From contig LCKG01000004.1 in the NCBI GenBank assembly GCA_001001285.1, positions 1,957 through 65,956 of the forward strand: a DNA stretch of 64,000 nt, in the 5' to 3' direction. Under the pieces are notes generated by a model. It was not told where the DNA came from. It made no database searches and saw only the letters and a list, made by a program, of their open reading frames with translations. Made by a program: the position numbers and the translations under genes. This DNA is from Parcubacteria group bacterium GW2011_GWC1_45_13. Its GTDB lineage: Bacteria; Patescibacteriota; Minisyncoccia; UBA11713; 2-01-FULL-45-33. The number at the start of each line of letters is the position of its first letter. Positions within the stretch are counted from its first letter, which is position 1. Shown in pieces: positions 1 through 40,447 of this stretch.

Positions 1-1244
1 ATCTTTCCATTTTCATCAATTGACCAGTTTCCGTTGGAGCTCCAAATGGCTGGCGCTTCAACCGCGTAAACTGCCTTTAATTTGCCGAGAGTTTGGTCGA
101 GCATCCAGCCATTACTTAATTCGCTTGACTCGCTTAATTTACTTAATTCGCTATCTAACTTCGCGTATCCCAAATTTACAAAAACGAGTATTTTTCCCTC
201 TGCTTGGGCTTCGCAAATATTATCTTGGCAAGAAATGCCGTCGAATGACTCCAAAGCAATGCCAATCGTCACTCCGGAAGTAGTCGCTTTCGTTCCCACG
301 CCAGCTTCTGAAGAAATAACGATTCTGTCCCCAACTTTGAGCGGCCCATTTTCCAAAGATATTTTCACCGGAACCCGCCCGGCCATTGCGACGGGATAGC
401 CGTTCGTGCTAGTCGCGTCAGGGCCGAATCCCAAAATGATTCCCGGATCGGTAGAAATAATTCCTATTACTTTATCCGTATTTTCTTTCATGGCCCTTTC
501 CACAAAATTTCCACCCGATGCCATTACTATTTCTCCTGCTTCCAGACTTTGTACGGAATTATATATTTCCGCCACGTCAGTCGCACCAATGGTTGATGTC
601 ACGGAACTTATCCGTCCGGTTGTTGAGGCGTTACAGCCGCCGTCGTTGTCCACACAAAGACCGCCGTTTGAAATTTCAACTCTGGAACCATTCCAGCCAA
701 CCACCAAAGAGCTTCTAGTGGGGCTGGTTGTGCCAATACCTACGCTTCCATATAATATGTTTCCGGCAGTTGTGGTTGTGCCGTAAATCGTCAGAATTGC
801 CGTGCTGTCTAGCATTGCCGAATAACTGTTTACAATACCGGCTGTTGTAGTTGAACTCGGCAAATCAATCCAGCTTAAAATTCCGGCATCCGTATCAAAG
901 GCCATGGGCCCGGTCTGAATTGAATCGGCGGAAATTATGCCGCTTGAGGAATCGTAATTAACAGCGCCAGAATCAACTACGAACCCGCCGTTGATTGAGG
1001 TCGTGGCGTAAGGCCCGTTGGTGTTGAAAGTAAAAAGAGGAGAAGCGGTGGTGGAGGTAGCGATAGACCAGGCGTAGACTTGATTTGAAGGAATTGTGGT
1101 AGTCGCGCTTGATAAATAATTAACAGTTAAAGTGGAGGCCGAAGAAGAAGCGATGTTTAGGATATTCGAGTTAAGCCAGGTGTTGCCGTTTATAGAGAGA
1201 GTAGAAAAAGGAGTTGTTGAAGCAATGCCGACGTTGCCCTTCAT
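1..1244 (-). CDS. 3'-partial Thr/Gly/Ser-rich repetitive beta-helix or tail-fibre-like protein (second segment; continues beyond window start)
   Basis: Hand translation of the minus strand from ATG at 1244 gives MKGNVGIASTTPFSTLSINGN...VYAWSIATSTTASPLFTFNT..., with no stop down to position 1. Composition and the GNVGIG motif match the upstream 683-aa ORF. It lies +1 out of frame with that ORF, so it is either a separate gene or a frameshifted continuation. Confidence 0.45.
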   Translation of the reverse strand, partial: MKGNVGIASTTPFSTLSINGNTWLNSNILNIASSSASTLTVNYLSSATTTIPSNQVYAWSIATSTTASPLFTFNTNGPYATTSINGGFVVDSGAVNYDSSSGIISADSIQTGPMAFDTDAGILSWIDLPSSTTTAGIVNSYSAMLDSTAILTIYGTTTTAGNILYGSVGIGTTSPTRSSLVVGWNGSRVEISNGGLCVDNDGGCNASTTGRISSVTSTIGATDVAEIYNSVQSLEAGEIVMASGGNFVERAMKENTDKVIGIISTDPGIILGFGPDATSTNGYPVAMAGRVPVKISLENGPLKVGDRIVISSEAGVGTKATTSGVTIGIALESFDGISCQDNICEAQAEGKILVFVNLGYAKLDSELSKLSESSELSNGWMLDQTLGKLKAVYAVEAPAIWSSNGNWSIDENGK

Positions 1245-3842: not shown

Positions 3843-3985
3843 GATGTATAATAAAAGTATATCGTTCTACCGAGATAACATAAAATGTTTCTGTGGATAA
3901 ATAAGATAAAAAATTAAAAAGTGAAGGCAAAAACTGAAATTATCTAAAAAATAATTTTAATAAACATTATTAAACATTAATAACA

Positions 3986-8541: not shown

Positions 8542-10952
8542 AATGCTTGAAGCCGTTTTCTGATTTCTTCCTCCACATCCTCGCGCGGACGGCCATATTT
8601 AGCGCGGGAAAGATTCTTTATATATGCGGCCGCGCTCGCCTCGCCAACTTCCTGTGGGATTGTTTTTATGTTAAACGCCTTGGAAGTCTGCCCGTCTATC
8701 AACAATTTAAGATAGGCGTTGAAATTATCAATGTTCAGCAAATCCTGCGCGGAAAACACTGGTTGAAACTGCTTTTCCATATATTCGGCGTCGTCCGAGC
8801 CGATGCGGAAAGATAAAATTGATCCGACATTTCCAAAAACCGCTTTTTTTATCTCTTCTTCCAATTGCCCGATAAATTGGTGCGCGATTATAAGATTGAG
8901 TTTGTATTTTCTCGCCTCTGACAGAATGGTAGCGATTGATTTTGTCGTAACGTTTTGGAATTCGTCTATATAAAGGTAAAAAGCTCCGCGCTCGGTCTGC
9001 GGCCTGTCTACGCGCGATAGCGCCGCCATTAAAATTTTCCCTACCATAATAAGGCCCAAAAGGCTGGAGTTGAGCTCGCCCAATTTACCCTTGGAAAGAT
9101 TTAAAAGCAAAATTTTCTTTCCGTCCATCACGTCGCGAATATTAAAGGCGGAGCGTTCTTGGGCGATAATTGGGCGCATGATTTCATTGGAAAGAAAAGT
9201 GTCAAATTTGGAGACAACATAAGGCACCATATTAGCGAGCGACTGCTCGCCACCGGCCTTTTCAGCGATTTGCCGCCAAAAAGTTTCCACCACAATATTC
9301 TTACTTCGTGAAAGCTTGTAGTCACGAAATGATTTGTCGGTCAAAACTCTCTCAATCTCTAAAAGCGTATTGCCGCTTTCCGGATCTTCCATTACAAGCA
9401 TCGTTGCGTTTCTAAAATACTGTTCAAACATGGGGCCTCCGGCGATGGACATATTAAAAAGTTTGTTAAAAATTTCAAGAAGTTCGTTGACAATAAGGCT
9501 TTTCTGCTCCGGATACCTAGGATCAAACTCCAGCATGTTTAATCCAATGGGGTGTTTGACGTCCCCTGGGTCGAAATAAATAACGTCTTCCGCGCGCTCC
9601 TTGGGTACCAGAGGCAATATAGACTCAATAAGATCTCCGTGCGGATCAATCACGGCAACACCTTCTCCCCATTGGATATCCTGAATAATCATGTTGTGCA
9701 TAAGACTGGATTTTCCAGTGCCGGTCTGCCCGATTATATAAAAATGGCGTTCTCTGTCCTCGCTTTTAATGCGCACAGTGCGCTCGTCGCCCCTGAAAGA
9801 ACTTATACCCAAAGACAAGCCATCCTTCGGCAAATTTACAGGTGGTGCCGCTTCTCTGGCTTTTAGCGTGCGCACCGTCGGTGCCGCCCTTTTGGAATAA
9901 GGCAGATGATAAATACTCACGATTTCTTCCACATTCAAATTTAAAACGCGGTTTTCGTCAAATAACCTAAATGAAAAATACTCAACCAATTTTCGCAGCG
10001 CCTTCCCGCCGAGCTCTTTTATTTTAAATTCACTGCCTTCCGGATTTGTAAATTGAAAAAAACTTGCTCCCAAATCTTTAAGCAAAGCGTCGGCTCGCTC
10101 CGTGGAAGCGGCGGATGTAAGAATGCGTACGTTGCATTCAAACATGGTTTTGCTTGCTTTCTCGTCCAAAAGCTTGGCAAACTCCTCATCATAAACTGAT
10201 TTTTGGTCTTTGGACTTTTTCTTGCCGAAAAAAATATCCCAAAACACGCTCCAAAACCCAGTTTCACCCAAAACTTCTTTACGGGAGACCCCCTCTTTTA
10301 ATTTTTGCGCAGCGAGATGTGCCCGTTTTTTCGTGTTCTCGCCGCCAAATCTTAAAACGATCTGTAAAGCCGCCCCCTCGCCATATTCTTTGATTTTAGA
10401 AAATGCGGAAGTTATTGTTTCCAAAGGGTCGGCCGCAAGCTTTTGGTAAGTTTTTATCGGTAAAATTTCGGATCCGGAGCGCAAAACCAAAGCGCCGGCA
10501 GTCGCACCCTCAACATTAAAAATATTGTAGTCCGGCGTCCTTTCTATTTTGGCTTCGGGAAAAGCGCCATGAAGCTGATTTTGAAGCAGAGATTCGTAAA
10601 TTTTTGGGAACGCAATGTAGAAAAAAATCTCATTCCCGCGGTTGTGCAATGCGATTTCCAAAGCGAAAGAAGGATTGCCCCATAATTTTTCTTTCAACCC
10701 CTTTCTTCGAAAAGTCGCCAGGCCGCTCAAAAATTGTTCCATCTGCATAATGAAATTTTTCAGAGCTTGGAATTCGTCGCCTTGCTGGGCCTTAGCGATT
10801 TCCGGCGAACTGATTAAATAAAGCGCAAGGCTTAGGCCAGAGCTTACGTCGCGCAGTTTTTTATTTTTTTGGTAAGAAGAAAAAAGTAAAAACCAAAAAA
10901 TCAAGGCGAGGACTATCGGTAAAACGATATAGAAAAAAGTGAAAGAATTCAT
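8538..10952 (-). CDS. membrane-anchored VirD4/TraG/TraD-like (AAA_10 / DUF87-type) coupling ATPase
   Basis: N-terminal TM helix; Walker A HFYIIGQTGTGKSS; Walker B YLYIDEFQN; C-terminal ARKYKLNLIIAHQ motif typical of the TraG/TraD C-terminal region. Confidence 0.55.
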   Translation of the reverse strand: MNSFTFFYIVLPIVLALIFWFLLFSSYQKNKKLRDVSSGLSLALYLISSPEIAKAQQGDEFQALKNFIMQMEQFLSGLATFRRKGLKEKLWGNPSFALEIALHNRGNEIFFYIAFPKIYESLLQNQLHGAFPEAKIERTPDYNIFNVEGATAGALVLRSGSEILPIKTYQKLAADPLETITSAFSKIKEYGEGAALQIVLRFGGENTKKRAHLAAQKLKEGVSRKEVLGETGFWSVFWDIFFGKKKSKDQKSVYDEEFAKLLDEKASKTMFECNVRILTSAASTERADALLKDLGASFFQFTNPEGSEFKIKELGGKALRKLVEYFSFRLFDENRVLNLNVEEIVSIYHLPYSKRAAPTVRTLKAREAAPPVNLPKDGLSLGISSFRGDERTVRIKSEDRERHFYIIGQTGTGKSSLMHNMIIQDIQWGEGVAVIDPHGDLIESILPLVPKERAEDVIYFDPGDVKHPIGLNMLEFDPRYPEQKSLIVNELLEIFNKLFNMSIAGGPMFEQYFRNATMLVMEDPESGNTLLEIERVLTDKSFRDYKLSRSKNIVVETFWRQIAEKAGGEQSLANMVPYVVSKFDTFLSNEIMRPIIAQERSAFNIRDVMDGKKILLLNLSKGKLGELNSSLLGLIMVGKILMAALSRVDRPQTERGAFYLYIDEFQNVTTKSIATILSEARKYKLNLIIAHQFIGQLEEEIKKAVFGNVGSILSFRIGSDDAEYMEKQFQPVFSAQDLLNIDNFNAYLKLLIDGQTSKAFNIKTIPQEVGEASAAAYIKNLSRAKYGRPREDVEEEIRKRLQAL

Positions 10953-18016: not shown

Positions 18017-19776
18017 CGGTCTGGTGGAATTGTATAATAATTTATTAAAAAATCAACCACAGATCTGAAAGTGTCGGTTATGGATTGCGAAGCGTATTTC
18101 ACGCCTTGAGGCTTTTCTAAAAATATCAGAATTAAAAATTTTGGGTCATAGGCCGGGAAATAACCAAAAAAGGAGTGTAAAAACTGGTCGTCAGAATAGC
18201 CCCTGCCGCCGATGTTAACTACTTGCGCCGTTCCGGTTTTGGCTGCGATGCTCATCTGTGGTATCTTGGCCTTCCCGCCAGCCAAAGACATATCCACGAC
18301 GTCAACCAGCATTTTTGTAATGGTTTCGGAAGTTTGCGGTTTAATCACGTCGCGGATAATTTGCGGAGCGGTGCCATCTTTTATAAAAGGCTTCATTAAA
18401 TGTCCGCCATTGGCGAGAGCCGAAAGCGCCATGGCCAACTCCAGAGGCGTCACGGCCACGCCTTGACCGAAAGCTGCGGTCGCAAACTCAACTTCCCTGC
18501 CGGATTCCAAATTGCTAAGATTCCCTTTTAATTCGCCGGGCAAATCTATGCCGGTTTTGTCGGCTAAGCCGAATTTATGAAAATATTCTTTCAATTTTTC
18601 TCCGCCTACGCGCTGCATGGCAAATACCGCGCCGGTATTTAAAGATTCTTCCAAAACTTGCGTCATAGTGCGCGTTCCGTGCGCTTTGCCGTCAAAATTT
18701 TTAATAATACGGTCCCCGATTTTAATCTGGCCCATATCCACGTAAGTAGTGTATGGAGTAACAGCCCCTTGATCCAAGGCCGCGGACATTGTGAGAGGTT
18801 TGAAAACCGAGCCCAGTTCAAAAATTTTTTCCACATAGGGATTCAAAAAAACGCCCAGATTGTTTTCGGCCTGATATTTGTTAGGGTCAAAATCCGGAGA
18901 ACCGGCCAAGGCTTTTATAGCGCCGGTTTTTGGATCAATAATTAAAATTCCTCCGGCCGCGGCGCGCCACTTTTCCCTTAATTTTTTTAATTCTTCTTCC
19001 GCAGTGCGCTGGACCGTCGGTTCTATGGTTAAAACCAAATCCTGCCCTTCGGCCGGCTCGGCGCGCAAATCTTCGCCTAAAGCGATTAATATGCCCTTGG
19101 CGTCTTTGTCGCCCGAAACGCTTCCCTTGGCGCCCCTTAAAGAATCGTCGTAATATTTTTCCGCGCCGTATCTGCCGACAGGCTCCTCCTCCGCCGACAG
19201 CGACGACACAAATCCCAAAATTTGGCTGCCGGTATCGCCCATCGGATATGCTCGCCATCGTTCTTTGGCCAGCCCAACGCCAGGAAGATTTAAAACGGAG
19301 ATTTTATCGGCTTCTTCCTGATTCAAGCGATGCTTAAGAATTTCATAAGGATCATTTGTTTTATTCGCTATTTTATCGAATAAAACGCGGTCTATCGGCG
19401 TAATAGCGTTTAATTTATTAAATATGTTTTCCGGGTCTTTTAAAAGTTTGGTATTCAAATACAAAAGAGCTCCTATTTTTGTAGTAGCCGCTTTAACAAG
19501 TTCTCCGTTTTTATTTTTGTAGTAAATATCTCCGCGTTTCGGCTCCAAAATTTCGCTGAACCTTTGCTGTTTTTTAGCCAGGTCGCGATAAACCGGATAA
19601 CGGACGATTTGAATAAAAAAAAGACGGCCGGCTACGGCCGTACTGATTAAAACGATAATGGCAAGAGTGAGCCCCAGGCGGTTATTGCTAGTAAAAATTT
19701 TGTTTTTCCGCATCTTTAACAGCGACGTTGCCTGCGGTTCTGATAATCTCCAGATTTTTAGGCTCCTCATAGCCAT
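18013..19776 (-). CDS. ftsI: penicillin-binding protein (FtsI/PBP3-type transpeptidase)
   Basis: SXXK (GSVFKP), SXN and KTG (AAKTGTAQV) transpeptidase motifs. dcw context. Confidence 0.85.
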   Translation of the reverse strand: MAMRSLKIWRLSEPQATSLLKMRKNKIFTSNNRLGLTLAIIVLISTAVAGRLFFIQIVRYPVYRDLAKKQQRFSEILEPKRGDIYYKNKNGELVKAATTKIGALLYLNTKLLKDPENIFNKLNAITPIDRVLFDKIANKTNDPYEILKHRLNQEEADKISVLNLPGVGLAKERWRAYPMGDTGSQILGFVSSLSAEEEPVGRYGAEKYYDDSLRGAKGSVSGDKDAKGILIALGEDLRAEPAEGQDLVLTIEPTVQRTAEEELKKLREKWRAAAGGILIIDPKTGAIKALAGSPDFDPNKYQAENNLGVFLNPYVEKIFELGSVFKPLTMSAALDQGAVTPYTTYVDMGQIKIGDRIIKNFDGKAHGTRTMTQVLEESLNTGAVFAMQRVGGEKLKEYFHKFGLADKTGIDLPGELKGNLSNLESGREVEFATAAFGQGVAVTPLELAMALSALANGGHLMKPFIKDGTAPQIIRDVIKPQTSETITKMLVDVVDMSLAGGKAKIPQMSIAAKTGTAQVVNIGGRGYSDDQFLHSFFGYFPAYDPKFLILIFLEKPQGVKYASQSITDTFRSVVDFLINYYTIPPDR

Positions 19777-21388: not shown

Positions 21389-21552
21389 ATATTTAAAGTT
21401 ATCCACACTATCCACAGGTTTATCCACATTTTCCCACTTCATATACATTGTAATCCACAGGCCGCTCGCGCGCAAATAAAAACGTCCCGCCGATGGCTGG
21501 ACAAAATAAAGCTAAATCAGCTTATTTACTCACAGCTTATTCACATTTATTT

Positions 21553-36390: not shown

Positions 36391-36654
36391 TTGACGACTT
36401 TTTATGTGTTTAGTAAACTTATAGTGATGGATTTAATACAAAAGAAATATCTCACCATTCATCAAGCCGCCAAATTAATAGGCGTTACCGCGCTTACGCT
36501 TAGAAATTGGGACAATCTGCGCAAATTTCAAGCAGCCAGGCACCCCATAAACAATTATCGGGTCTATACTTTAGAACAAATTGAATCATTGCTTAAAAAA
36601 TTAGGACTGCCTAAGCCTGCCAAGAAATTGGTTATAAAGATTTTAGAGGATTAG
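36391..36654 (+). CDS. MerR-family / excisionase-like HTH DNA-binding protein
   Basis: LTIHQAAKLIGVTALTLRNWDNLRKF HTH. Located immediately 5' of the IR-bounded cassette. Confidence 0.55.
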   Translation: MTTFYVFSKLIVMDLIQKKYLTIHQAAKLIGVTALTLRNWDNLRKFQAARHPINNYRVYTLEQIESLLKKLGLPKPAKKLVIKILED

Positions 36655-36701
36655 TAAGGTTTATTAATATTTTGGACATTATACGACAAAATCAGAACCT
36701 T

Positions 36702-36959
36702 TTTTGAGCAAAATCCCAACTGATTTACCCCTTCATTCACCCCTTCATCGGCTCTGCCTCGGAATGAAGGGGTAGCTCTGTTGATTTGCCTTATGTTTAC
36801 TGGACTTTCTAACCTTCGCTCTTCAAAATCCCAAACCCGACTTCACTCCGCTACGCCCCATTCCACGCTTGTGCTGTTTTCCACGAAAGTCCTCCTGTGG
36901 AGGACTGGCTCGCCGCCCAGCTGGGCGGCTCGCAGGTCGCCGGAATTCCTCCCCTCAAA
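36702..36959 (+). repeat. IR-L: about 260-nt structured repeat, inverted partner of IR-R (39880-40139)
   Basis: By-eye alignment to the reverse complement of 39880-40139 gives about 80% identity. Contains hairpins ccccttcattc/gaatgaagggg, gtcctcc-tgt-ggaggac and gccgccc-agct-gggcggc. Confidence 0.7.
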
Positions 36960-37018
36960 CCCCTCCTTTCGGCTGGTCCTTAGATGAGGTAGATAAGCAG
37001 TTATCCACAGGTGAGTAC

Positions 37019-37047
37019 TTTACAAGAATGTGATATTGGTATAGGAT
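37019..37047 (+). promoter_or_regulatory. putative promoter for the cassette (TTTACA-17-TAGGAT)
   Basis: -35-like TTTACA, 17-nt spacer, TAGGAT, about 40 nt upstream of the GHKL ATPase ATG. Weak. Confidence 0.25.
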
Positions 37048-37087
37048 CATACTATCACTTAATAAACTATCAATTAGTATACAAAAT

Positions 37088-38740
37088 ATGGAAAAAAACC
37101 AAAAAACTGAGACCATAGATATCACACCGGATAAGAGTATTTATCACAAAATTGGGGAAGCTAATTATTCGATCTCTGATGCACTTGCAGAATTAGTAGA
37201 CAACTCAATTGATGCTGCGAATGAAGATGGCGTCGAGATATTTATTGTCTTAGATAAGAAGGGAGAAAAAATCATTGTCGAAGACAACGGGCAAGGGATG
37301 AGCAAAGAGATAGCTTCGAAGAGTCTAGTACTTGCCTATTCTAAAAAACATGATGCACTAGGCGAGTTTGGCTTGGGTTTAAAATCAGCTTGCACAAGTC
37401 TCGGAACAATTTTTGTTATAACAAGTACTCCAAAAGGCTCTGAAGAAAAATATACTCTCGAATATAATAAGGAGCAATTTTTACAATCAAGTGATTGGCA
37501 TAAGTATCCTCTTACAATCATAAAGGCTCCGAAGAATGAACACGGAACAAAAATAGAAATTAGTAGTTTGAAGATCAAATTATATGATGCACTTGTTACG
37601 CGTCTCAAGGAGGACTTAGCAAAAAGATACGGCCCATATATTGAGCATAACAATGTTGTCATTAAAGTCGGCTTGAGGAGAGAGACGGCTAAACCGTGCG
37701 TACCTAGCGAAAATAAACTAGTTCCTGACTCGAAGAAAGATTTCTCATATATGCTTTCAAAAGGAAGCACTATTACGGGTTGGTATGGTCTTTTAGAGGT
37801 TGGATCACAAAAACAAAGCGGTTTCAACCTATTCCGAAGAGGACGATTAATAAGAGCGTCTGAGAAACTTGGTTATAACTATCACCCACACCTTATGAGT
37901 GTTGCGGGGGAAATAAATTTGGATTCCGTACCAGTAACACACAATAAACGAGAATTCATTATTGAATCTAGCGAATTTAAAGAATTTATTGAAAAATTTT
38001 GGGGCGATCAAACTGAAAAATATTTGGGGTACAAAGTTAAGGGTAAAATCGATGAGATAACAAAAACCGCCAGAGATCGATCAAGCCAAGAAAAAGCGGA
38101 TAGTATGCCAGTTGAAAGAAAAGAAACAATAAAAAATAACTTATTGAATGCCCTTAACCGCCTCGATGAATTCAAAGAATTAGCTTACCCAGATCTATAT
38201 CAACCTAAAAAGAGGTCTGCAACTGGGAAGGAAGATTTTAAGGAAACCAGAGAAACTGATTTGCGAGTAGCTAAAGAAGAGGAAGTGCCGCTTACAAAGG
38301 AAGAAAGGGATCAAAGAACACCCAAAAAGACACAGCCCAAAACAGCCAAGTTTATAATGGTTGGGGGGAAAAAATTCAAATTTGATTTCTTTCTAAGAAA
38401 TCTGGGGAACGATACTATCGATAAGGAAACTATTATTAATCAAGAAAATGTTATCGAAATATATATTAACACGGGATTCAAGGGTTATGGTTTAACAAAG
38501 GATACTGATTTTTATTCTACCTTCCATATAGCGGAGGCTATTGCCGAACTTTATGTTAAAGAAGCTAATCAAAAGGTAGAAAGGATTTTTGAGCTAAGAA
38601 ATAGTCTCATATACGAAGTTGCATCTTTAATATACGAGGAAGAGGAATATAAAAGGCTTGAAAAAACTGAAAAAGAGTTGGCTGCAGTTACTGACAAAAA
38701 AAGAGAGCTTGAAGAAAAGAGAGCAAGAACGAGTTTATGA
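37088..38740 (+). CDS. MORC/MutL-type GHKL ATPase (HATPase_c_3) with C-terminal coiled coil
   Basis: Bergerat-fold motifs: N-box ALAELVDNSIDA, G1 box VEDNGQGM, G2 box GEFGLGLKSA; K/E-rich C-terminal coiled coil. Codon usage is AT-richer than the flanking genes. Confidence 0.75.
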   Translation: MEKNQKTETIDITPDKSIYHKIGEANYSISDALAELVDNSIDAANEDGVEIFIVLDKKGEKIIVEDNGQGMSKEIASKSLVLAYSKKHDALGEFGLGLKSACTSLGTIFVITSTPKGSEEKYTLEYNKEQFLQSSDWHKYPLTIIKAPKNEHGTKIEISSLKIKLYDALVTRLKEDLAKRYGPYIEHNNVVIKVGLRRETAKPCVPSENKLVPDSKKDFSYMLSKGSTITGWYGLLEVGSQKQSGFNLFRRGRLIRASEKLGYNYHPHLMSVAGEINLDSVPVTHNKREFIIESSEFKEFIEKFWGDQTEKYLGYKVKGKIDEITKTARDRSSQEKADSMPVERKETIKNNLLNALNRLDEFKELAYPDLYQPKKRSATGKEDFKETRETDLRVAKEEEVPLTKEERDQRTPKKTQPKTAKFIMVGGKKFKFDFFLRNLGNDTIDKETIINQENVIEIYINTGFKGYGLTKDTDFYSTFHIAEAIAELYVKEANQKVERIFELRNSLIYEVASLIYEEEEYKRLEKTEKELAAVTDKKRELEEKRARTSL

Positions 38741-38810
38741 GACCCAAAGATATAGGAAAGACAAACATAAAGGTCGATACGATAATAATAAATTATAATT
38801 TAATACCACA

Positions 38811-39233
38811 ATGAAGAAAAAAGTTTTTGTTAGCTTCGATTATGATAATGATAAGCACTACAAATATCTTCTTGAGGCATGGGACGCGAATCCTCAATTT
38901 AATTTTGTCTTCAATGACGCGACACCAGAGGAAATCGATAGCTACAATATCGGTAGAATCAAAGCGGCCTTAACCTTAAAAGTTAAGGAGGCAGACTACA
39001 CACTAGTTCTTGTAGGTAAGGAAGCGAATAAGACCCATAGACACAGTCGACTTATTGGCTTTAAAAACTGGATCAACTTTGAGGTTGCTAAGAGTAAAGA
39101 GCTTGGAAACAAAATCGTTGCCGTCAAATTAGATAGAGAGAATGAATCTCCAGAGGAGCTGCTCGACTCAGGTGCTTCTTGGGCTATGAGTTTTTCTCAA
39201 GCCGCAATTATCAAGGCATTGAATGATGCCTAA
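38811..39233 (+). CDS. TIR-like domain protein (DUF1863 / ThsB-like)
   Basis: N-terminal KKVFVSFDYDNDKHYKYLLEAW matches the beta-A strand and start of TIR-like MTH538/DUF1863 domains. 140 aa. Confidence 0.55.
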   Translation: MKKKVFVSFDYDNDKHYKYLLEAWDANPQFNFVFNDATPEEIDSYNIGRIKAALTLKVKEADYTLVLVGKEANKTHRHSRLIGFKNWINFEVAKSKELGNKIVAVKLDRENESPEELLDSGASWAMSFSQAAIIKALNDA

Positions 39234-39243
39234 GTGAATATCT

Positions 39244-39849
39244 ATGAGCATAAGCGACGATAAAAAACTAGAGACGCTTAACGATCACTACAAAGATACA
39301 TTCGCTCAAATACGTGATTATATCTCACTGCGTGATAAGTTGTTGATCTGGATTCTCTTGGTAGCTGCAGTGATGTTATTCGAAGTTTTTTCTCCGAGTG
39401 AGGCCGGCTTAGCTATCGCACAATTTGCGTCCGAAAAGGTCGGCCTTAATGGAGCCTTAATTAACACCTCATTCATCGGAAGCGTCATTTGGTTTTTGAT
39501 GCTCGTTTTGACAATGAAATATTTTCAAACAGTGGGGTTAATTGAGAAACATTATGATTATATTGAAAAAGTAGAGGACGCTATAAGAAAAAACTACGAT
39601 GGAGCTACGGGAATCTTTTCTAGAGAGGGACGACACTATCTCGAAAACTATCCTCTCTTTTCTGATTGGTCGTGGCTCTTATATACGATAATTTTCCCGA
39701 TACTATTAGTCGCCGTTTTGTTATATAAAATATATAATGAGGTTTTTATTTCAGGTTGCAGCGTGATTTTCTATATAAATCTTTTAATATTTATTTGCAT
39801 AGTTACGTCAACGATTCTTTATTTAAGGATGTTGCATTTTAAAAAATAG
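39244..39849 (+). CDS. four-TM membrane protein (candidate effector of the cassette)
   Basis: 201 aa; hydrophobic helices at about 33-52, 85-105, 141-161 and 172-194. Tightly linked (10-nt gap) to the TIR-like gene. Confidence 0.5.
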   Translation: MSISDDKKLETLNDHYKDTFAQIRDYISLRDKLLIWILLVAAVMLFEVFSPSEAGLAIAQFASEKVGLNGALINTSFIGSVIWFLMLVLTMKYFQTVGLIEKHYDYIEKVEDAIRKNYDGATGIFSREGRHYLENYPLFSDWSWLLYTIIFPILLVAVLLYKIYNEVFISGCSVIFYINLLIFICIVTSTILYLRMLHFKK

Positions 39850-39879
39850 TTCTCGGCCATGCGACCTTGAGCTATGAAT

Positions 39880-40139
39880 TTTGAGGGGAGGAATTTCGGC
39901 GACCAAGCGAGCCGACCAGCAGGGCGGCGAGCCAATCCGCCGGAGGCGGATATTGTGGGAAACAGCACAAGCGTGGAATGGGGGCGTAGCGGAGTGAAGT
40001 CGGGTTTGGAATTTGAGGGAGGCGAAGTCAGAATAGCGAGTAATGACAGGCGGATTTGAGAACGGAGGGTAGTCATTCCGAGGTAGGGCGAATGACTACC
40101 TGAATGACTAGGTAAATCAGTCAGGATTTTGCTCAAAAT
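39880..40139 (-). repeat. IR-R: inverted copy of the IR-L structured element
   Basis: Reverse complement aligns with 36702-36959, including the conserved core caaacccgacttcactccgctacgcccc.attccacgcttgtgctgttt. Hairpins retained through compensatory changes (ggtagtcattc/gaatgactacc; atccgcc-tcc-ggcggat). Confidence 0.7.
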
Positions 40140-40178
40140 GAGTCCGAACAGTATCATAAAGACACCACCAAATTTGAT

Positions 40179-40226
40179 TTGCATCAGAATTGACCGAGCC
40201 CGCGCCAAAGGCGCGGGCGAGGTCAA
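40179..40226 (+). terminator. putative intrinsic terminator after the cassette
   Basis: GC-rich hairpin gcccgcgcc-aaa-ggcgcgggc, then T-rich tctttctt. Confidence 0.3.
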
Positions 40227-40248
40227 TCTTTCTTCAAATTCGGAATTG

Positions 40249-40319
40249 TGGACCCGAGGGGAATCGAACCCCTATTTTCCGGATGCAAACCGGATGCTCT
40301 ACCACTAAGCTACGGGCCC
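40249..40319 (-). tRNA. tRNA-Ala (anticodon UGC)
   Basis: Acceptor GGGCCCG/CGGGUCC with the G3:U70 Ala identity pair and A73; D-arm GCUU-AGUGGUA-GAGC; anticodon loop UUUGCAU; T-arm GGGGUUCGAUUCCCC. Confidence 0.85.
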
Positions 40320-40447
40320 CGGGCACGATTTATTTCTTGCCCATGATCCTTTCCTTTCATTGTCACCTCTTTGGGATTCACCATCGTTCTTTTTTCACGG
40401 CATTTTACACAGTAGGCAATTATTTTTTCGTCTTTATCATTTGCCAT
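40310..40447 (-). CDS. small zinc-ribbon-like protein, possibly truncated (CxxC...VTMK family)
   Basis: 45-aa ORF MANDKDEKIIAYCVKCREKRTMVNPKEVTMKGKDHGQEINRARGP; its last 4 codons read into the tRNA-Ala 5' end. Only one CxxC pair, although a second would be expected. Confidence 0.3.
   Translation of the reverse strand: MANDKDEKIIAYCVKCREKRTMVNPKEVTMKGKDHGQEINRARGP

Follow-up and report, generated by a model that had tools for sequence, protein, structure and literature searches.

We regard as probable an evolutionary scenario in which two long inverted repeats in the window (the whole stretch of 64,000 nucleotides analyzed) are the boundary elements of a small integrative defense island of the large serine recombinase (LSR) type, with the inner part of each repeat perhaps serving as a portable homology arm. 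We name the non-coding element E; its two copies form the left (IRL) and right (IRR) arms found in the window. In related Patescibacteria, a wide variety of defense cassettes is bracketed by these same end-pieces.

A precise insertion at the 3' end of tRNA-Ala

The window carries a precise insertion at the 3' end of a tRNA-Ala gene, at positions 36673 to 40248. In a near-identical and otherwise collinear contig (L064) the whole block is absent and the empty site reads ...CCCCTCGGGTCCA/AAATATTAATAAACC..., while the same flanks lie 3.58 kb apart in the window, which is occupied, as is L063. The comparison therefore delimits an island of 3,576 bp that comprises the left E arm, three cargo genes, the right E arm, and an LSR-scar palindrome. 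Its junctions are nucleotide-exact, with the 5-bp repeat TGGAC on both borders: comparison of the occupied and empty sites places one copy at 36673 to 36677 (plus strand), where the host flank meets the outer end of E, and the other at 40249 to 40253 (plus strand), antisense to the last bases, GTCCA, of the tRNA. That tRNA-Ala(TGC), the integration target, lies on the minus strand at 40248 to 40319 (ARAGORN; Rfam, 72.9 bits), and its 3' end abuts the island. The original prediction had proposed a search for target-site duplications, but the bordering repeat is not one: since TGGAC is the tRNA's own 3' end and recurs as the fixed junction of LSR 3' ends, it is better read as a crossover core. 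The breakpoints, ...TGGTG/, are likewise constant in tRNA-Val and tRNA-Lys islands.

All three cargo genes are on the plus strand. The first (37088 to 38740) encodes a GHKL/MORC-like ATPase of 550 amino acids (Pfam HATPase_c_3, 1.6e-20), with a sub-threshold match to Morc6_S5 (22.5 bits, cutoff 26.2) and a weak PADLOC match to MzaB. The second (38811 to 39233) encodes a ThsB-like TIR-domain protein of 140 amino acids (Pfam ThsB_TIR, 3.2e-11; PADLOC ThsB, 3.2e-15). The third (39244 to 39849) encodes a putative membrane protein of 201 amino acids, judged by hydrophobic stretches in its translation, with no family match in Pfam or PADLOC. The ThsA effector (SIR2 or Macro/SLOG), the Thoeris partner of ThsB, is absent, and the neighbors of ThsB are the GHKL ATPase and the uncharacterized putative membrane protein. 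Between the right arm and the tRNA, at 40171 to 40248, lies an imperfect palindrome of 78 nt, AATTTGATTTGCATCAGAATTGACCGAGCCCGCGCC-AAA-GGCGCGGGCGAGGTCAATCTTTCTTCAAATTCGGAATTG (inverted repeat I6), which is also shaped like a hairpin terminator. The earlier view that the arms are not decayed insertion-sequence ends, and that the cassette is the cargo of a non-autonomous mobile element, agrees with these results.

Architecture and distribution of E

The arms had been described as inverted repeats of roughly 80% identity, at 36702 to 36959 and 39880 to 40139, and they do align: a blastn search of the window with 36690 to 36990 recovers the reverse complement of 39880 to 40138 (266 nt aligned, 77.4% identity, E = 1.1e-48). 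The mean column identity of padded 300-nt stretches of both arms, gapped flanks included, is 85% (MAFFT), and a repeat search of the window links the arms through five collinear inverted blocks, I1 to I5. The near-perfect core that was claimed is equally real, with CCGACTTCACTCCGCTACG present once per arm, at 36837(+) and 39985(-), and nowhere else in the 64 kb, where 0.01 copies would be expected by chance. The proposed unit length of about 260 nt, however, was too short, as conservation continues beyond it in both arms, reaching 36673 (left) and 40170 (right), some 30 nt farther out in each case; optional closing hairpins stretch E inward to about 36976 (left) and 39852 (right).

E is laid out as an outer leader, 1 to 3 tandem modules of ~128 nt, and a core of ~125 nt, and the distance from leader to core is constant across all E copies. 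In the left arm (plus strand throughout), the leader TGGACATTATACGACAAAATCAGAACCTTTTTTGAGCAAAATCCCAACTGA at 36673 to 36723, marked by its fixed distance to the core, is the putative P' arm of an LSR attachment site; it holds a perfect TATAAT on the reverse strand, facing outward. An allele-B module follows at 36724 to 36835, starting with TTTACC and recognized by its motif copies and their allele-specific triple covariation: two copies are direct (ACCCCTTCATTC, 36727 to 36738; ACCCCTTCATCG, 36739 to 36750) and one is inverted (GAATGAAGGGGT, 36762 to 36773), after which the sequence is variable. The left core, CCCGACTTCACTCCG to GCCGGAATTCCTCCCC, spans 36836 to 36976 and contains the hairpins P3 (36889 to 36905) and P2 (36907 to 36933) and a closing hairpin that reaches 36973; an alignment of 34 distinct copies, with pair counts, defines it and shows that, among the copies of a core that otherwise hardly varies, this one has diverged the most. 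The right arm (39852 to 40170, minus strand) carries an outer leader whose end, TGGTGGTGT, is at 40162 to 40170, an allele-A module (GGTAGTCATTC / GAATGACTACC) inward of the leader, a type-1 core at 39880 to 40005, and an alternative inner hairpin, CTCAAGGTCGCATGGCCGAG, at 39852 to 39871.

Both compensatory hairpins cited in the original prediction are found in the arm sequences, the first as CCCCTTCATTC...GAATGAAGGGG on the left and GGTAGTCATTC...GAATGACTACC on the right, the second as GTCCTCC-TGT-GGAGGAC in one arm versus ATCCGCC-TCC-GGCGGAT in the other. The conclusion drawn from them, that covariation places the fold under selection, survives in part. The changes are compensatory, and the module hairpin exists in at least six alleles; between these two copies, however, the covariation amounts to an allele swap and one diverged hairpin. 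The difference in the first hairpin does not reflect local drift: it is an exchange between module alleles A and B, both of them widespread, which at other loci stand alone or in tandem. Each module bears an 11-nt motif in two direct copies and one inverted copy, and all three copies switch together among the alleles. That the third, unpaired copy switches with the hairpin is evidence against a simple hairpin; a set of repeated binding sites, or alternative pairing, would explain this co-switching at least as well.

Together, the E copies make up a non-coding element family of Patescibacteria. A survey of copy number, suggested by the original prediction, shows that the unit is not unique to this locus but is present at about 50 others in the group, with the core at 8 loci from genomes and 40 from metagenomes; numerous contigs end within E, a sign that it is a repeat. 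At all 19 of the 19 paired loci, the copies converge on 2 to 5 kb of variable, unrelated defense cargo, which among loci includes restriction-modification systems, Shedu, a kinase/phosphatase pair, a Panacea toxin-antitoxin, a ubiquitin-like system, Z1, PIN, and ThsB. An island with a single E also exists (L055). At an orthologous tRNA-Val site (L052 versus L058), the housekeeping flanks are 71 to 75% identical and the E arms about 90 to 94% identical, while the cargo is unrelated; L013 and L050 share an E at 96.6% identity and differ in cargo. Homology in the compared islands ends at the inner edge of E, and the inner part of E marks the place of cargo replacement.

The core is 95 to 100% identical among islands whose LSRs share only 21 to 47% amino-acid identity, a near-invariance that could reflect recent spread rather than function. 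Other LSR lineages have different core sequences, of at least three types; no one of them is indispensable. Across LSR lineages, conservation is widest for the module (nhmmer matches, model positions 2 to 130). The inner flanks of E fall into at least three unrelated classes.

Large serine recombinases at the E junctions

All E copies with informative flanks lie at tRNA or LSR junctions. In relatives of the window island, an LSR gene stands between the tRNA and one E. The LSRs beside E in L014, L024, L025, and L056 have the Pfam domain Resolvase in 4/4 cases and Recombinase and Zn_ribbon_recom in most; tblastn reveals further LSRs near E in L013, L022, and L053, and the gene is also inside the element in L067 to L074. 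The last 115 to 170 nt of the LSR gene are present twice, in inverted orientation, with one copy fused to the antisense tRNA 3' end and the other to the outer end of E. Both copies match up to the same nucleotide, breaking at ...TCTTGGTG/ before continuing into tRNA or E, and their identity is 100% across 112 nt in L024 and 93% across 144 nt in L025. In L031, L055, and L030/L059, the outer end of the distal E is joined to the former tRNA-Val trailer. Among independently fetched LSR homologues, 7/8 have a 3' end that overlaps a convergent tRNA (Val, Glu, Gly, Gln, Ser, Leu) or lies within about 30 nt of one (Leu), and 7/8 have an inverted copy of that 3' end 0.4 to 9 kb upstream. At 7 loci, E or an E-like leader follows the inverted copy or the LSR's own 3' end (L068).

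Because the duplicated LSR 3' end is fused to the tRNA and to the outer end of E, the outer ~45 nt of the arms reads as an LSR attachment arm. The suggestion that the arms are recombination sites thus holds for this outer stretch, which behaves as a recombination arm, and not for the rest. In the mechanism that we propose, the outer ~45 nt of E would be the P' arm of the LSR's attP, an assignment made from junction logic alone, and no clear dyad symmetry surrounds the crossover. The LSR would recombine attP with attB at these junctions, integrating a circle of the order LSR - cargo2 - attP/E - cargo1 - E into the tRNA 3' end; the model takes the inverted duplication of attP and E as given. The window island would be a derivative without the LSR gene that keeps the 78-nt palindrome of the gene's two 3' ends. 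Comparable LSR-less palindromes in L031, L058, and L035 are built of recognizable LSR 3' ends, and the tRNA-side arm of the window palindrome has its counterpart in L019, L020, and L053, where the matching arm is joined to E. As tblastn finds no LSR gene in the island or in the whole 64-kb window, with only the palindromic remnant at 40171 to 40248, we classify the island as a recombinase-less derivative; its mobilization would have occurred in trans, or its insertion would be older than the loss of the gene. The same type-1 modules and core stand behind lineage-specific leaders, which indicates that E moves between islands with different LSRs.

SCCmec, a cargo island mobilized by LSRs (CcrAB), is similar in being a small, non-replicative island moved site-specifically by an LSR into the 3' end of a conserved gene, with a few bases shared by both junctions, in its highly variable cargo, and in its frequent recombinase-less derivatives that stay in place. 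The present islands differ in that they integrate at the 3' end of a tRNA, one attachment arm is supplied by the recombinase's own 3' end, a structured element of 260 to 400 nt is duplicated together with the attachment site in inverted orientation within the island, the cargo is bracketed by arms rather than free, and the hosts are Patescibacteria. Tycheposons of Prochlorococcus reportedly also occupy tRNA genes, in streamlined genomes that lack conjugation. According to the parts of the published account on which we draw (bioRxiv 10.1101/2020.12.28.424599), they too are small integrative elements with adaptive or defense cargo, most with tyrosine recombinases and a minority with a large serine recombinase; many carry replication genes, whereas none were seen here, and those parts describe no structured inverted arms such as ours. 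The inferred free circle also resembles the yeast 2-micron circle, with two long inverted repeats that each hold a recombinase target, two unique arcs of which one encodes the recombinase, and both flip isomers observed, as the LSR body is found in both orientations (L025 versus L024). Flp, however, is a tyrosine recombinase, no replication origin or gene is found here, and the flipping between L024 and L025 could be no more than homologous recombination.

The inner part of E

LSRs need only ~50-bp sites, and we know of no LSR property that requires an arm of 260 to 400 nt. The role that we favor, tentatively, for the inner part of E is that of paired, portable homology arms through which cassettes are exchanged. 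A double crossover, for instance following DNA uptake, would let any E-flanked cassette take the place of any other, and the inverted orientation of the arms would block deletion by arm-arm recombination and permit either cargo polarity. Homology arms, however, need no hairpins, triple-motif covariation, or strand asymmetry, so part of the conservation of E falls outside this role.

It is possible, if somewhat doubtful, that E is instead a gene or cis-element for a structured RNA that is read away from the cargo on the G-rich strand and regulates something at the edge of the island, be it as an antisense RNA to the LSR 3' end, as a leader, as an insulator, or as an RNA that brings transcription to genes downstream of the interrupted tRNA. 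This reading is compatible with the island model and competes with homology arms only over the inner part. On the G-rich strand, a predicted multi-helix junction and module hairpin has 98.8% paired cells, better than slid controls, and the ~125-nt core stays nearly invariant among LSR lineages that differ greatly. The inner part of E appears, in these structure models, to fold on the G-rich, outward-reading strand, and its hairpins are likely to be under structural constraint there. Rfam 15 gives only tRNAs in the window at the gathering threshold, however, and the Rfam check proposed earlier matched neither arm to any family even at E <= 10, so a described RNA family was rejected. The core also hardly varies, which leaves almost no covariation to back its helices, and it differs in sequence between lineages. 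Non-consensus cells of the predicted helices favor G.U over A.C by 31 to 4 on the G-rich strand, a count that depends on the structure predicted for that strand; in helices predicted on both strands the excess is about 11 to 1, much of it in one column. Folding of the G-rich strand is stronger than in shuffles for the left arm (z = -3.7) but no better than shuffles for the right arm (z = -1.2). Promoter-like sites do face the inner end of E: a TTGATA-N16-TATGAT at 37046 to 37073 (minus strand), a consensus match only, could drive transcription of the G-rich strand, although such sites are no more numerous in the region than shuffles predict, and one cargo-flank class has a TATAAT about 20 nt from E. 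At the outer end, an outward TATAAT lies 9 nt before the tRNA-Ala 5' end in L014 and L027. Against this, no promoter or terminator is conserved as part of E among the copies compared, the inner flanks being of unrelated classes, and the genes on either side of E are directed toward it, so that transcripts leaving E would run into those genes.

Rather unlikely is a reading in which the modules are accessory or primary recombination sites (res-subsite or folded attC-like), at which the LSR, host Xer, or another enzyme, not homologous recombination, swaps or inverts cassettes site-specifically. The three motif copies that switch together are as expected of binding or folded sites, the module's wide conservation and the identical type-1 inner parts that move between islands are in keeping with such a role, and strand asymmetry also fits a folded single strand of DNA. 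Besides the LSR, however, there is no conserved protein to read allele-specific motifs; the A and B alleles coexist in one arm and accompany the same LSR lineages; neither a tyrosine recombinase nor an HUH enzyme occurs in any locus examined; and cargo homology stops at the inner edge of E, not at the modules. Integron attC sites are 57 to 141 nt long, stand in direct orientation in arrays, and need the IntI tyrosine recombinase and an attI site. E recalls them in that its hairpin arms stay complementary as sequence changes, a hint of one folded, functional strand; none of those attC features is present here, and an integron cassette was rejected on the constantly inverted arms and the missing tyrosine recombinase. 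A serine-invertase switch of the hix/gix type was also rejected, as there is no invertase in the window and the arms are 260 to 320 nt long and 77% identical, versus short identical sites of ~26 bp. The pdif modules of Acinetobacter plasmids and engineered recombinase-mediated cassette exchange use sites of 28 to 50 bp, read by Xer or an integrase. They likewise hold cassettes between paired inverted recombination sites, in modules interchangeable between replicons; in E, only the outer ~45 nt is recombinase-arm-like, of attL and attP types, a pairing that to our knowledge no LSR performs, and the long inner part is without counterpart.

Highly improbable, finally, is the leading candidate of the original prediction, a MITE-like non-autonomous DDE transposon with the arms as terminal inverted repeats and its transposase elsewhere: inverted arms around cargo, a 5-bp direct repeat at the borders, no transposase or integrase between the arms among loci scanned, and a multi-copy family in metagenomes all resemble one, but the repeat is a crossover core, the insertion is site-specific at the tRNA-Ala 3' end in a family mobilized by LSRs, only two copies occur in 64 kb, a single E (which can make up an island's complement, as in L055) has no terminal inverted repeats of its own in the copies compared, and about 350 kb of loci, scanned as cargo and flank proteins and recurrent protein clusters, contain no transposase. 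E does share with MITE and BOX-type mosaic repeats a non-coding, modular build, a variable number of internal units, and a tendency to break assemblies; it is not scattered among intergenic regions, however, but is located at tRNA or recombinase junctions and is invariably oriented toward cargo.

An inserted island with inverted arms

We are highly confident that the block at 36673 to 40248 of the window is a tRNA-Ala insertion belonging to a family of large serine recombinase (LSR) islands. The inverted match that had been claimed between 36702 to 36959 and the reverse complement of 39880 to 40139 is real: blastn aligns the two at 77.4% identity over 266 nt (E value, 1e-48). Its near-perfect core likewise stands, since the window holds two exact occurrences of the word CCGACTTCACTCCGCTACG and no more, where chance predicts 0.01. 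A MAFFT alignment of the two arms recovers long identical blocks, and a repeat search of the window finds five collinear inverted blocks. The arms are 48 to 58% G+C against a background of ~35 to 40%, with a strong skew of C over G on the strand pointing into the cassette. A protein-coding repeat can be dismissed, as single-base indels between the copies break every reading frame, and an Rfam scan matched the arms to no family, whether at the gathering threshold across the whole window or at E values up to 10 across 36500 to 40400.

Comparison with related contigs, retrieved via a 478-aa flanking protein, delimits the insertion. One locus, L063, and 17 similar places are identical to the window. 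At another, L064, the site is empty and the tRNA-Ala 3' end joins the MerR-side flank directly (...CCCCTCGGGTCCA|AAATATTAATAAACC...), so that the window carries a 3,576-bp insertion at 36673 to 40248. The insertion is bordered by the 5-bp repeat TGGAC, the right-hand copy of which is the antisense of the last bases of the tRNA gene (40248 to 40319, reverse strand). An 87-aa MerR/excisionase-type helix-turn-helix (HTH) protein (36391 to 36654, forward strand) ends 20 nt before the left junction; the empty site has it too, which makes it a gene of the host rather than a directionality factor encoded by the island. Upstream of the tRNA gene, a small open reading frame (ORF; 40310 to 40447, reverse strand) is 72 nt shorter than in L063 to L066 (compared around 9640 to 9740), four contigs otherwise near-identical to the window. 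The difference is an in-frame deletion polymorphism, and the longer version has Cys-x-x-Cys pairs and the look of a zinc ribbon.

A modular element flanking defense cargo

Both arms (left, 36673 to 36976, forward strand; right, 39852 to 40170, reverse strand) belong to a family of noncoding elements, here called E, and copies beyond this locus, on which the original prediction depended, do exist: scans for exact words place the core in 8 genome and 40 metagenome contigs, after 4 genome and 10 metagenome loci that had only the search word in common with the core were left out as chance. The genome records are labeled Candidatus Taylorbacteria, Giovannonibacteria, or "Patescibacteria group," and a few odd bin labels fall on short contigs. 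Three E-bearing loci are binned as "uncultured archaeon" (L008), "Gammaproteobacteria" (L012), and "Saccharibacteria" (L004, which is identical to locus L052 over E); these are probably mis-binned contigs, transfer of E outside the Parcubacteria being the other possible reading. Many contigs end inside E, as expected for a repeat. A run of N at ~1970 to 1992 of L001, a Taylorbacteria scaffold, lies exactly inside the conserved core; it reflects either masked sequence or a gap that the repeat caused in scaffolding.

Aligned copies of E have four parts, which we describe from the outside in on the C-rich strand. A leader of about 45 nt, starting (T)TGGTGGnnATTATAC or TGGACATTATAC, is followed by one to three tandem modules of about 128 nt each, which start with TTTACC and end at the junction CCGACTTCACTCCG. 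Each module holds an 11-nt motif in two direct copies and one inverted copy, and then a variable stretch. The core, about 125 nt long, is 95 to 100% identical in nearly all copies, and the inner end (...GCCGGAATTCCTCCCC) carries either of two optional closing hairpins. A homopolymer run at the inner end differs in length between copies, from 4 to 7 nt in type-1 copies (CCTCCCC / CCTCCCCCC) to 12 G in L071 (~560 to 600, reverse strand); homopolymer tracts like this one can act as slipped-strand switches.

This anatomy bears on the two compensatory hairpins that had been proposed from the arms. Both quoted pairs of hairpin arms are present in the sequence. The first reflects a difference between module alleles, allele A (GGTAGTCATTC) in the right arm and allele B (CCCCTTCATTC) in the left, which at other loci occur singly or as a tandem of A and B. 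The second, the core hairpin P3 (36889 to 36905 in the left arm), is truly a double compensatory change and is confined to the left arm of the window, the most diverged type-1 copy of E seen.

Paired copies of E lie 2 to 5 kb apart in 19 loci, all 19 of them convergent, with the C-rich strand pointing inward. Most apparently solo copies in our 8-kb loci are not solo, their partner lying beyond the stored stretch; L001, for instance, has the same cargo as L029, L039, and L062, and L055 is a genuine single-E island. The genes between the copies differ by locus and are overwhelmingly anti-phage. They include C5 and N4/N6 methylases with Mrr, MvaI/BcnI, TdeIII, or CfrBI nucleases, GmrSD, Shedu, a kinase/PP2C pair, SocA/Panacea, an E1-E2-multiubiquitin set, Z1 with a PD-(D/E)XK nuclease, PIN, and Schlafen-AlbA. 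In the window, the cargo genes encode a GHKL/MORC-like ATPase, a ThsB-like TIR protein, and a protein of 201 aa whose sequence suggests that it is embedded in a membrane. At no locus do the arms enclose a transposase or an integrase. A small XRE regulator is often found at the inner edge of E. In eight loci (L016, L017, L020, L024, L044, L045, L051, and L061), the first ~70 nt inside the inner end form a recurrent region, TATGGTATTATAAATCCATA, an imperfect palindrome with -10-like boxes on both strands and a conserved 70-aa XRE regulator downstream, an arrangement like the controller-protein operators of restriction-modification systems.

The recombinase and its proposed attachment sites

When all the ORFs of the loci were clustered, a protein of ~520 aa emerged, encoded just outside the outer end of E. 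Pfam identifies it as an LSR, with Resolvase, Recombinase, and Zn_ribbon_recom domains in L024, L025, and L056 and with Resolvase and Zn_ribbon_recom matches only in L014; tblastn located further LSR genes near E in L013, L022, and L053. The last 115 to 145 nt of the gene occur twice, inverted, and the copies are identical up to ...TCTTGGTG. Past that point, one copy runs into the antisense 3' end of a tRNA gene (Val in L025, Lys in L024, Ala in L014) and the other into the E leader. At the far side of tRNA-Val islands, the outer end of E is joined to a sequence common to three independent islands, which reads as the former trailer of the tRNA. Recombination of attP with attB predicts four combinations, and these are represented by the three junction types (LSR end/tRNA, LSR end/E, and trailer/E) plus the empty tRNA/trailer site. 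The attP site would then be [LSR 3' end]-core-[E leader], and the LSR would move the E island family with the outer end of E as one of its attachment arms. That the leader serves as an attP arm is a reading of these junctions that we hold with moderate confidence.

The LSR gene sits between inverted copies of its own 3' end (112 to 170 nt, up to 100% identical) in L024 (segment 1921 to 3622), L025 (1416 to 4062), and L067 to L074. Its body occurs in both orientations between the two copies (L025 versus L024). The copies are 76 to 93% identical in some loci, and where they differ a flip would swap the C-terminal ~40 to 55 residues of the recombinase. Three loci that lack the LSR (L031, L058, and L035) keep the 3'-end copies as a palindrome with 22- to 41-nt arms between the tRNA and E. 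A palindrome of the same kind lies in the window at 40171 to 40248, and L019, L020, and L053 have a match to its tRNA-side arm (...TTCTTCAAATTCGGAAT-TGTGGAC) in the arm that they carry fused to E, which argues that the window's island is a recombinase-less derivative. A tblastn search found no LSR gene anywhere in the 64-kb window.

The LSR family has 5,289 homologues at E values of ≤1e-20, from Patescibacteria, Parcubacteria, Adlerbacteria, Kaiserbacteria, and Paceibacterota where the source is named. Eight homologues (59 to 77% identity) were picked regardless of E. Seven of the eight have a convergent tRNA gene at the LSR 3' end, either overlapping it (Val, Glu, Gly, Gln, Ser, and Leu) or within ~30 nt (Leu), and an inverted copy of the 3' end is found 0.4 to 9 kb upstream in 7/8 (129 to 170 nt and 91 to 100% identical in five, shorter or more diverged in two), with further defense genes in between. 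E lies beyond the inverted copy in four of these loci; three others have an E-like leader and then a shorter GC-hairpin region, following either the inverted copy or the 3' end of the LSR gene itself. Further module alleles (CCCCATCATTC, CCCCTACGTTC, CCCCTACATTC, and CCCCTTCAATC) come from these diverged copies; in them the direct motif copies always match each other, and the inverted copy is complementary in all but the last, CCCCTTCAATC of L071, where it is degenerate. The diverged copies have at least three core types, and no other part of E is as widely conserved as the module.

The island works like other LSR-mobilized cargo islands and like the tRNA-targeting elements of streamlined genomes; it differs from both in its inverted internal attachment-site copy and its long structured arms, of which full-text searches of the literature found no description. 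E is probably a new noncoding element, carried by a variant of the LSR-mobilized kind of island. Patescibacteria have tiny genomes, are not known to conjugate, and have few mobile elements described; little is known of how they gain and replace their anti-phage genes. Our data expose an abundant island family, its recombinases alone numbering more than 5,000 homologues, with a stereotyped architecture (tRNA / recombinase + cargo / inverted attachment site / structured arm / cargo / structured arm). A 19-mer from the arms is a simple handle for harvesting new defense cassettes from metagenomes of Patescibacteria.

Candidate roles of the modules and core

Any specific role for the modules and core is assigned with low to moderate confidence. 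We tentatively prefer to see the arms as portable homology that lets cassettes be replaced by double crossover. Type-1 modules and core are 90 to 100% identical behind leaders that vary with the LSR lineage, and the LSRs beside them share only 21 to 47% amino acid identity, which argues that E spreads between islands. At the same tRNA-Val site, L052 and L058 have housekeeping flanks that are 71 to 75% identical, E arms that are about 90 to 94% identical, and unrelated cargo; L013 and L050 share E at 96.6% identity around different cargo. Homology ends at the inner edge of E, and L031 and L052 have the same two E types with their positions swapped. The inverted orientation would stop loss of the cassette by recombination between the arms and would permit either cargo polarity. 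Homology arms account neither for the existence of hairpin alleles nor for the co-varying third copy of the motif or the strand asymmetry.

Two rivals are compatible with homology arms. The inner part of E may be a structured RNA, a possibility that we rate somewhat below homology arms. The core is predicted to form a five-helix junction on the G-rich, outward-reading strand, and one-sided changes in the helices predicted on that strand give 31 G.U against 4 A.C pairs. The structure was itself predicted on the G-rich strand, however, and with only the helices predicted on both strands the count shrinks to about 11 against 1. Covariation is confined to the module hairpin and the window's P3 hairpin because the core varies so little. 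Module-level site-specific exchange is a quite improbable second rival. A broader reading, which we consider unlikely, makes inner E, with its hairpin modules of three co-varying motif copies and its near-invariant multi-helix core, a new class of folded element, either RNA or a single DNA strand, actively mediating or controlling the exchange of defense cassettes between recombinase islands; it would amount to a plug-and-play adapter, a functional analogue of integron attC sites, unrelated to them, working alongside LSRs. If the arms are universal exchange adapters or a new structured RNA, they would represent a new cassette-shuffling mechanism and could become a tool alongside LSRs, which are already in use for genome engineering.

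Other readings fared worse. A Rho-loading (rut) insulator on the C-rich strand is weakly supported, with a C/G ratio of only 1.1 to 1.9, 18 to 28% G, and stable GC hairpins. A tmRNA- or tRNA-like RNA is hinted at by GGGGGCGTAGCGG in the core and CCACCA at the outer end, yet E is without a T-arm, acceptor pairing, or ARAGORN or Rfam support, and the CCACCA follows from the crossover at the tRNA end. DnaA-like TTTTCCACA occurs in some cores and a perfect DnaA box at 37001; a replication origin is rejected, as the boxes are inconsistent across copies and no island has a replication gene. A consensus scan found no more intrinsic terminators or sigma-70 promoters inside E than in shuffles. E also failed tests for a MITE or DDE transposon, an integron cassette, an invertase switch, and a known RNA family, and three core 19- to 20-mers had zero exact matches in 2.9 million viral contigs, which dismisses a phage packaging-site or satellite mimic.

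In L014 and L027 the outward TATAAT of the leader lies 9 nt upstream of tRNA-Ala, and it may serve to reinstate the transcription of genes that the insertion has cut off. The perfect DnaA box TTATCCACA is present, and matches to the pattern TT[AT]TCCACA fall in the window at 18827, 21399, 21420, and 37001 (forward strand) and at 3892 (reverse strand), with 19 matches in all sequence examined against about 5 expected. The matches at 21399 and 21420 are 21 nt apart, and this pair near 21.4 kb might mark the chromosomal replication origin.
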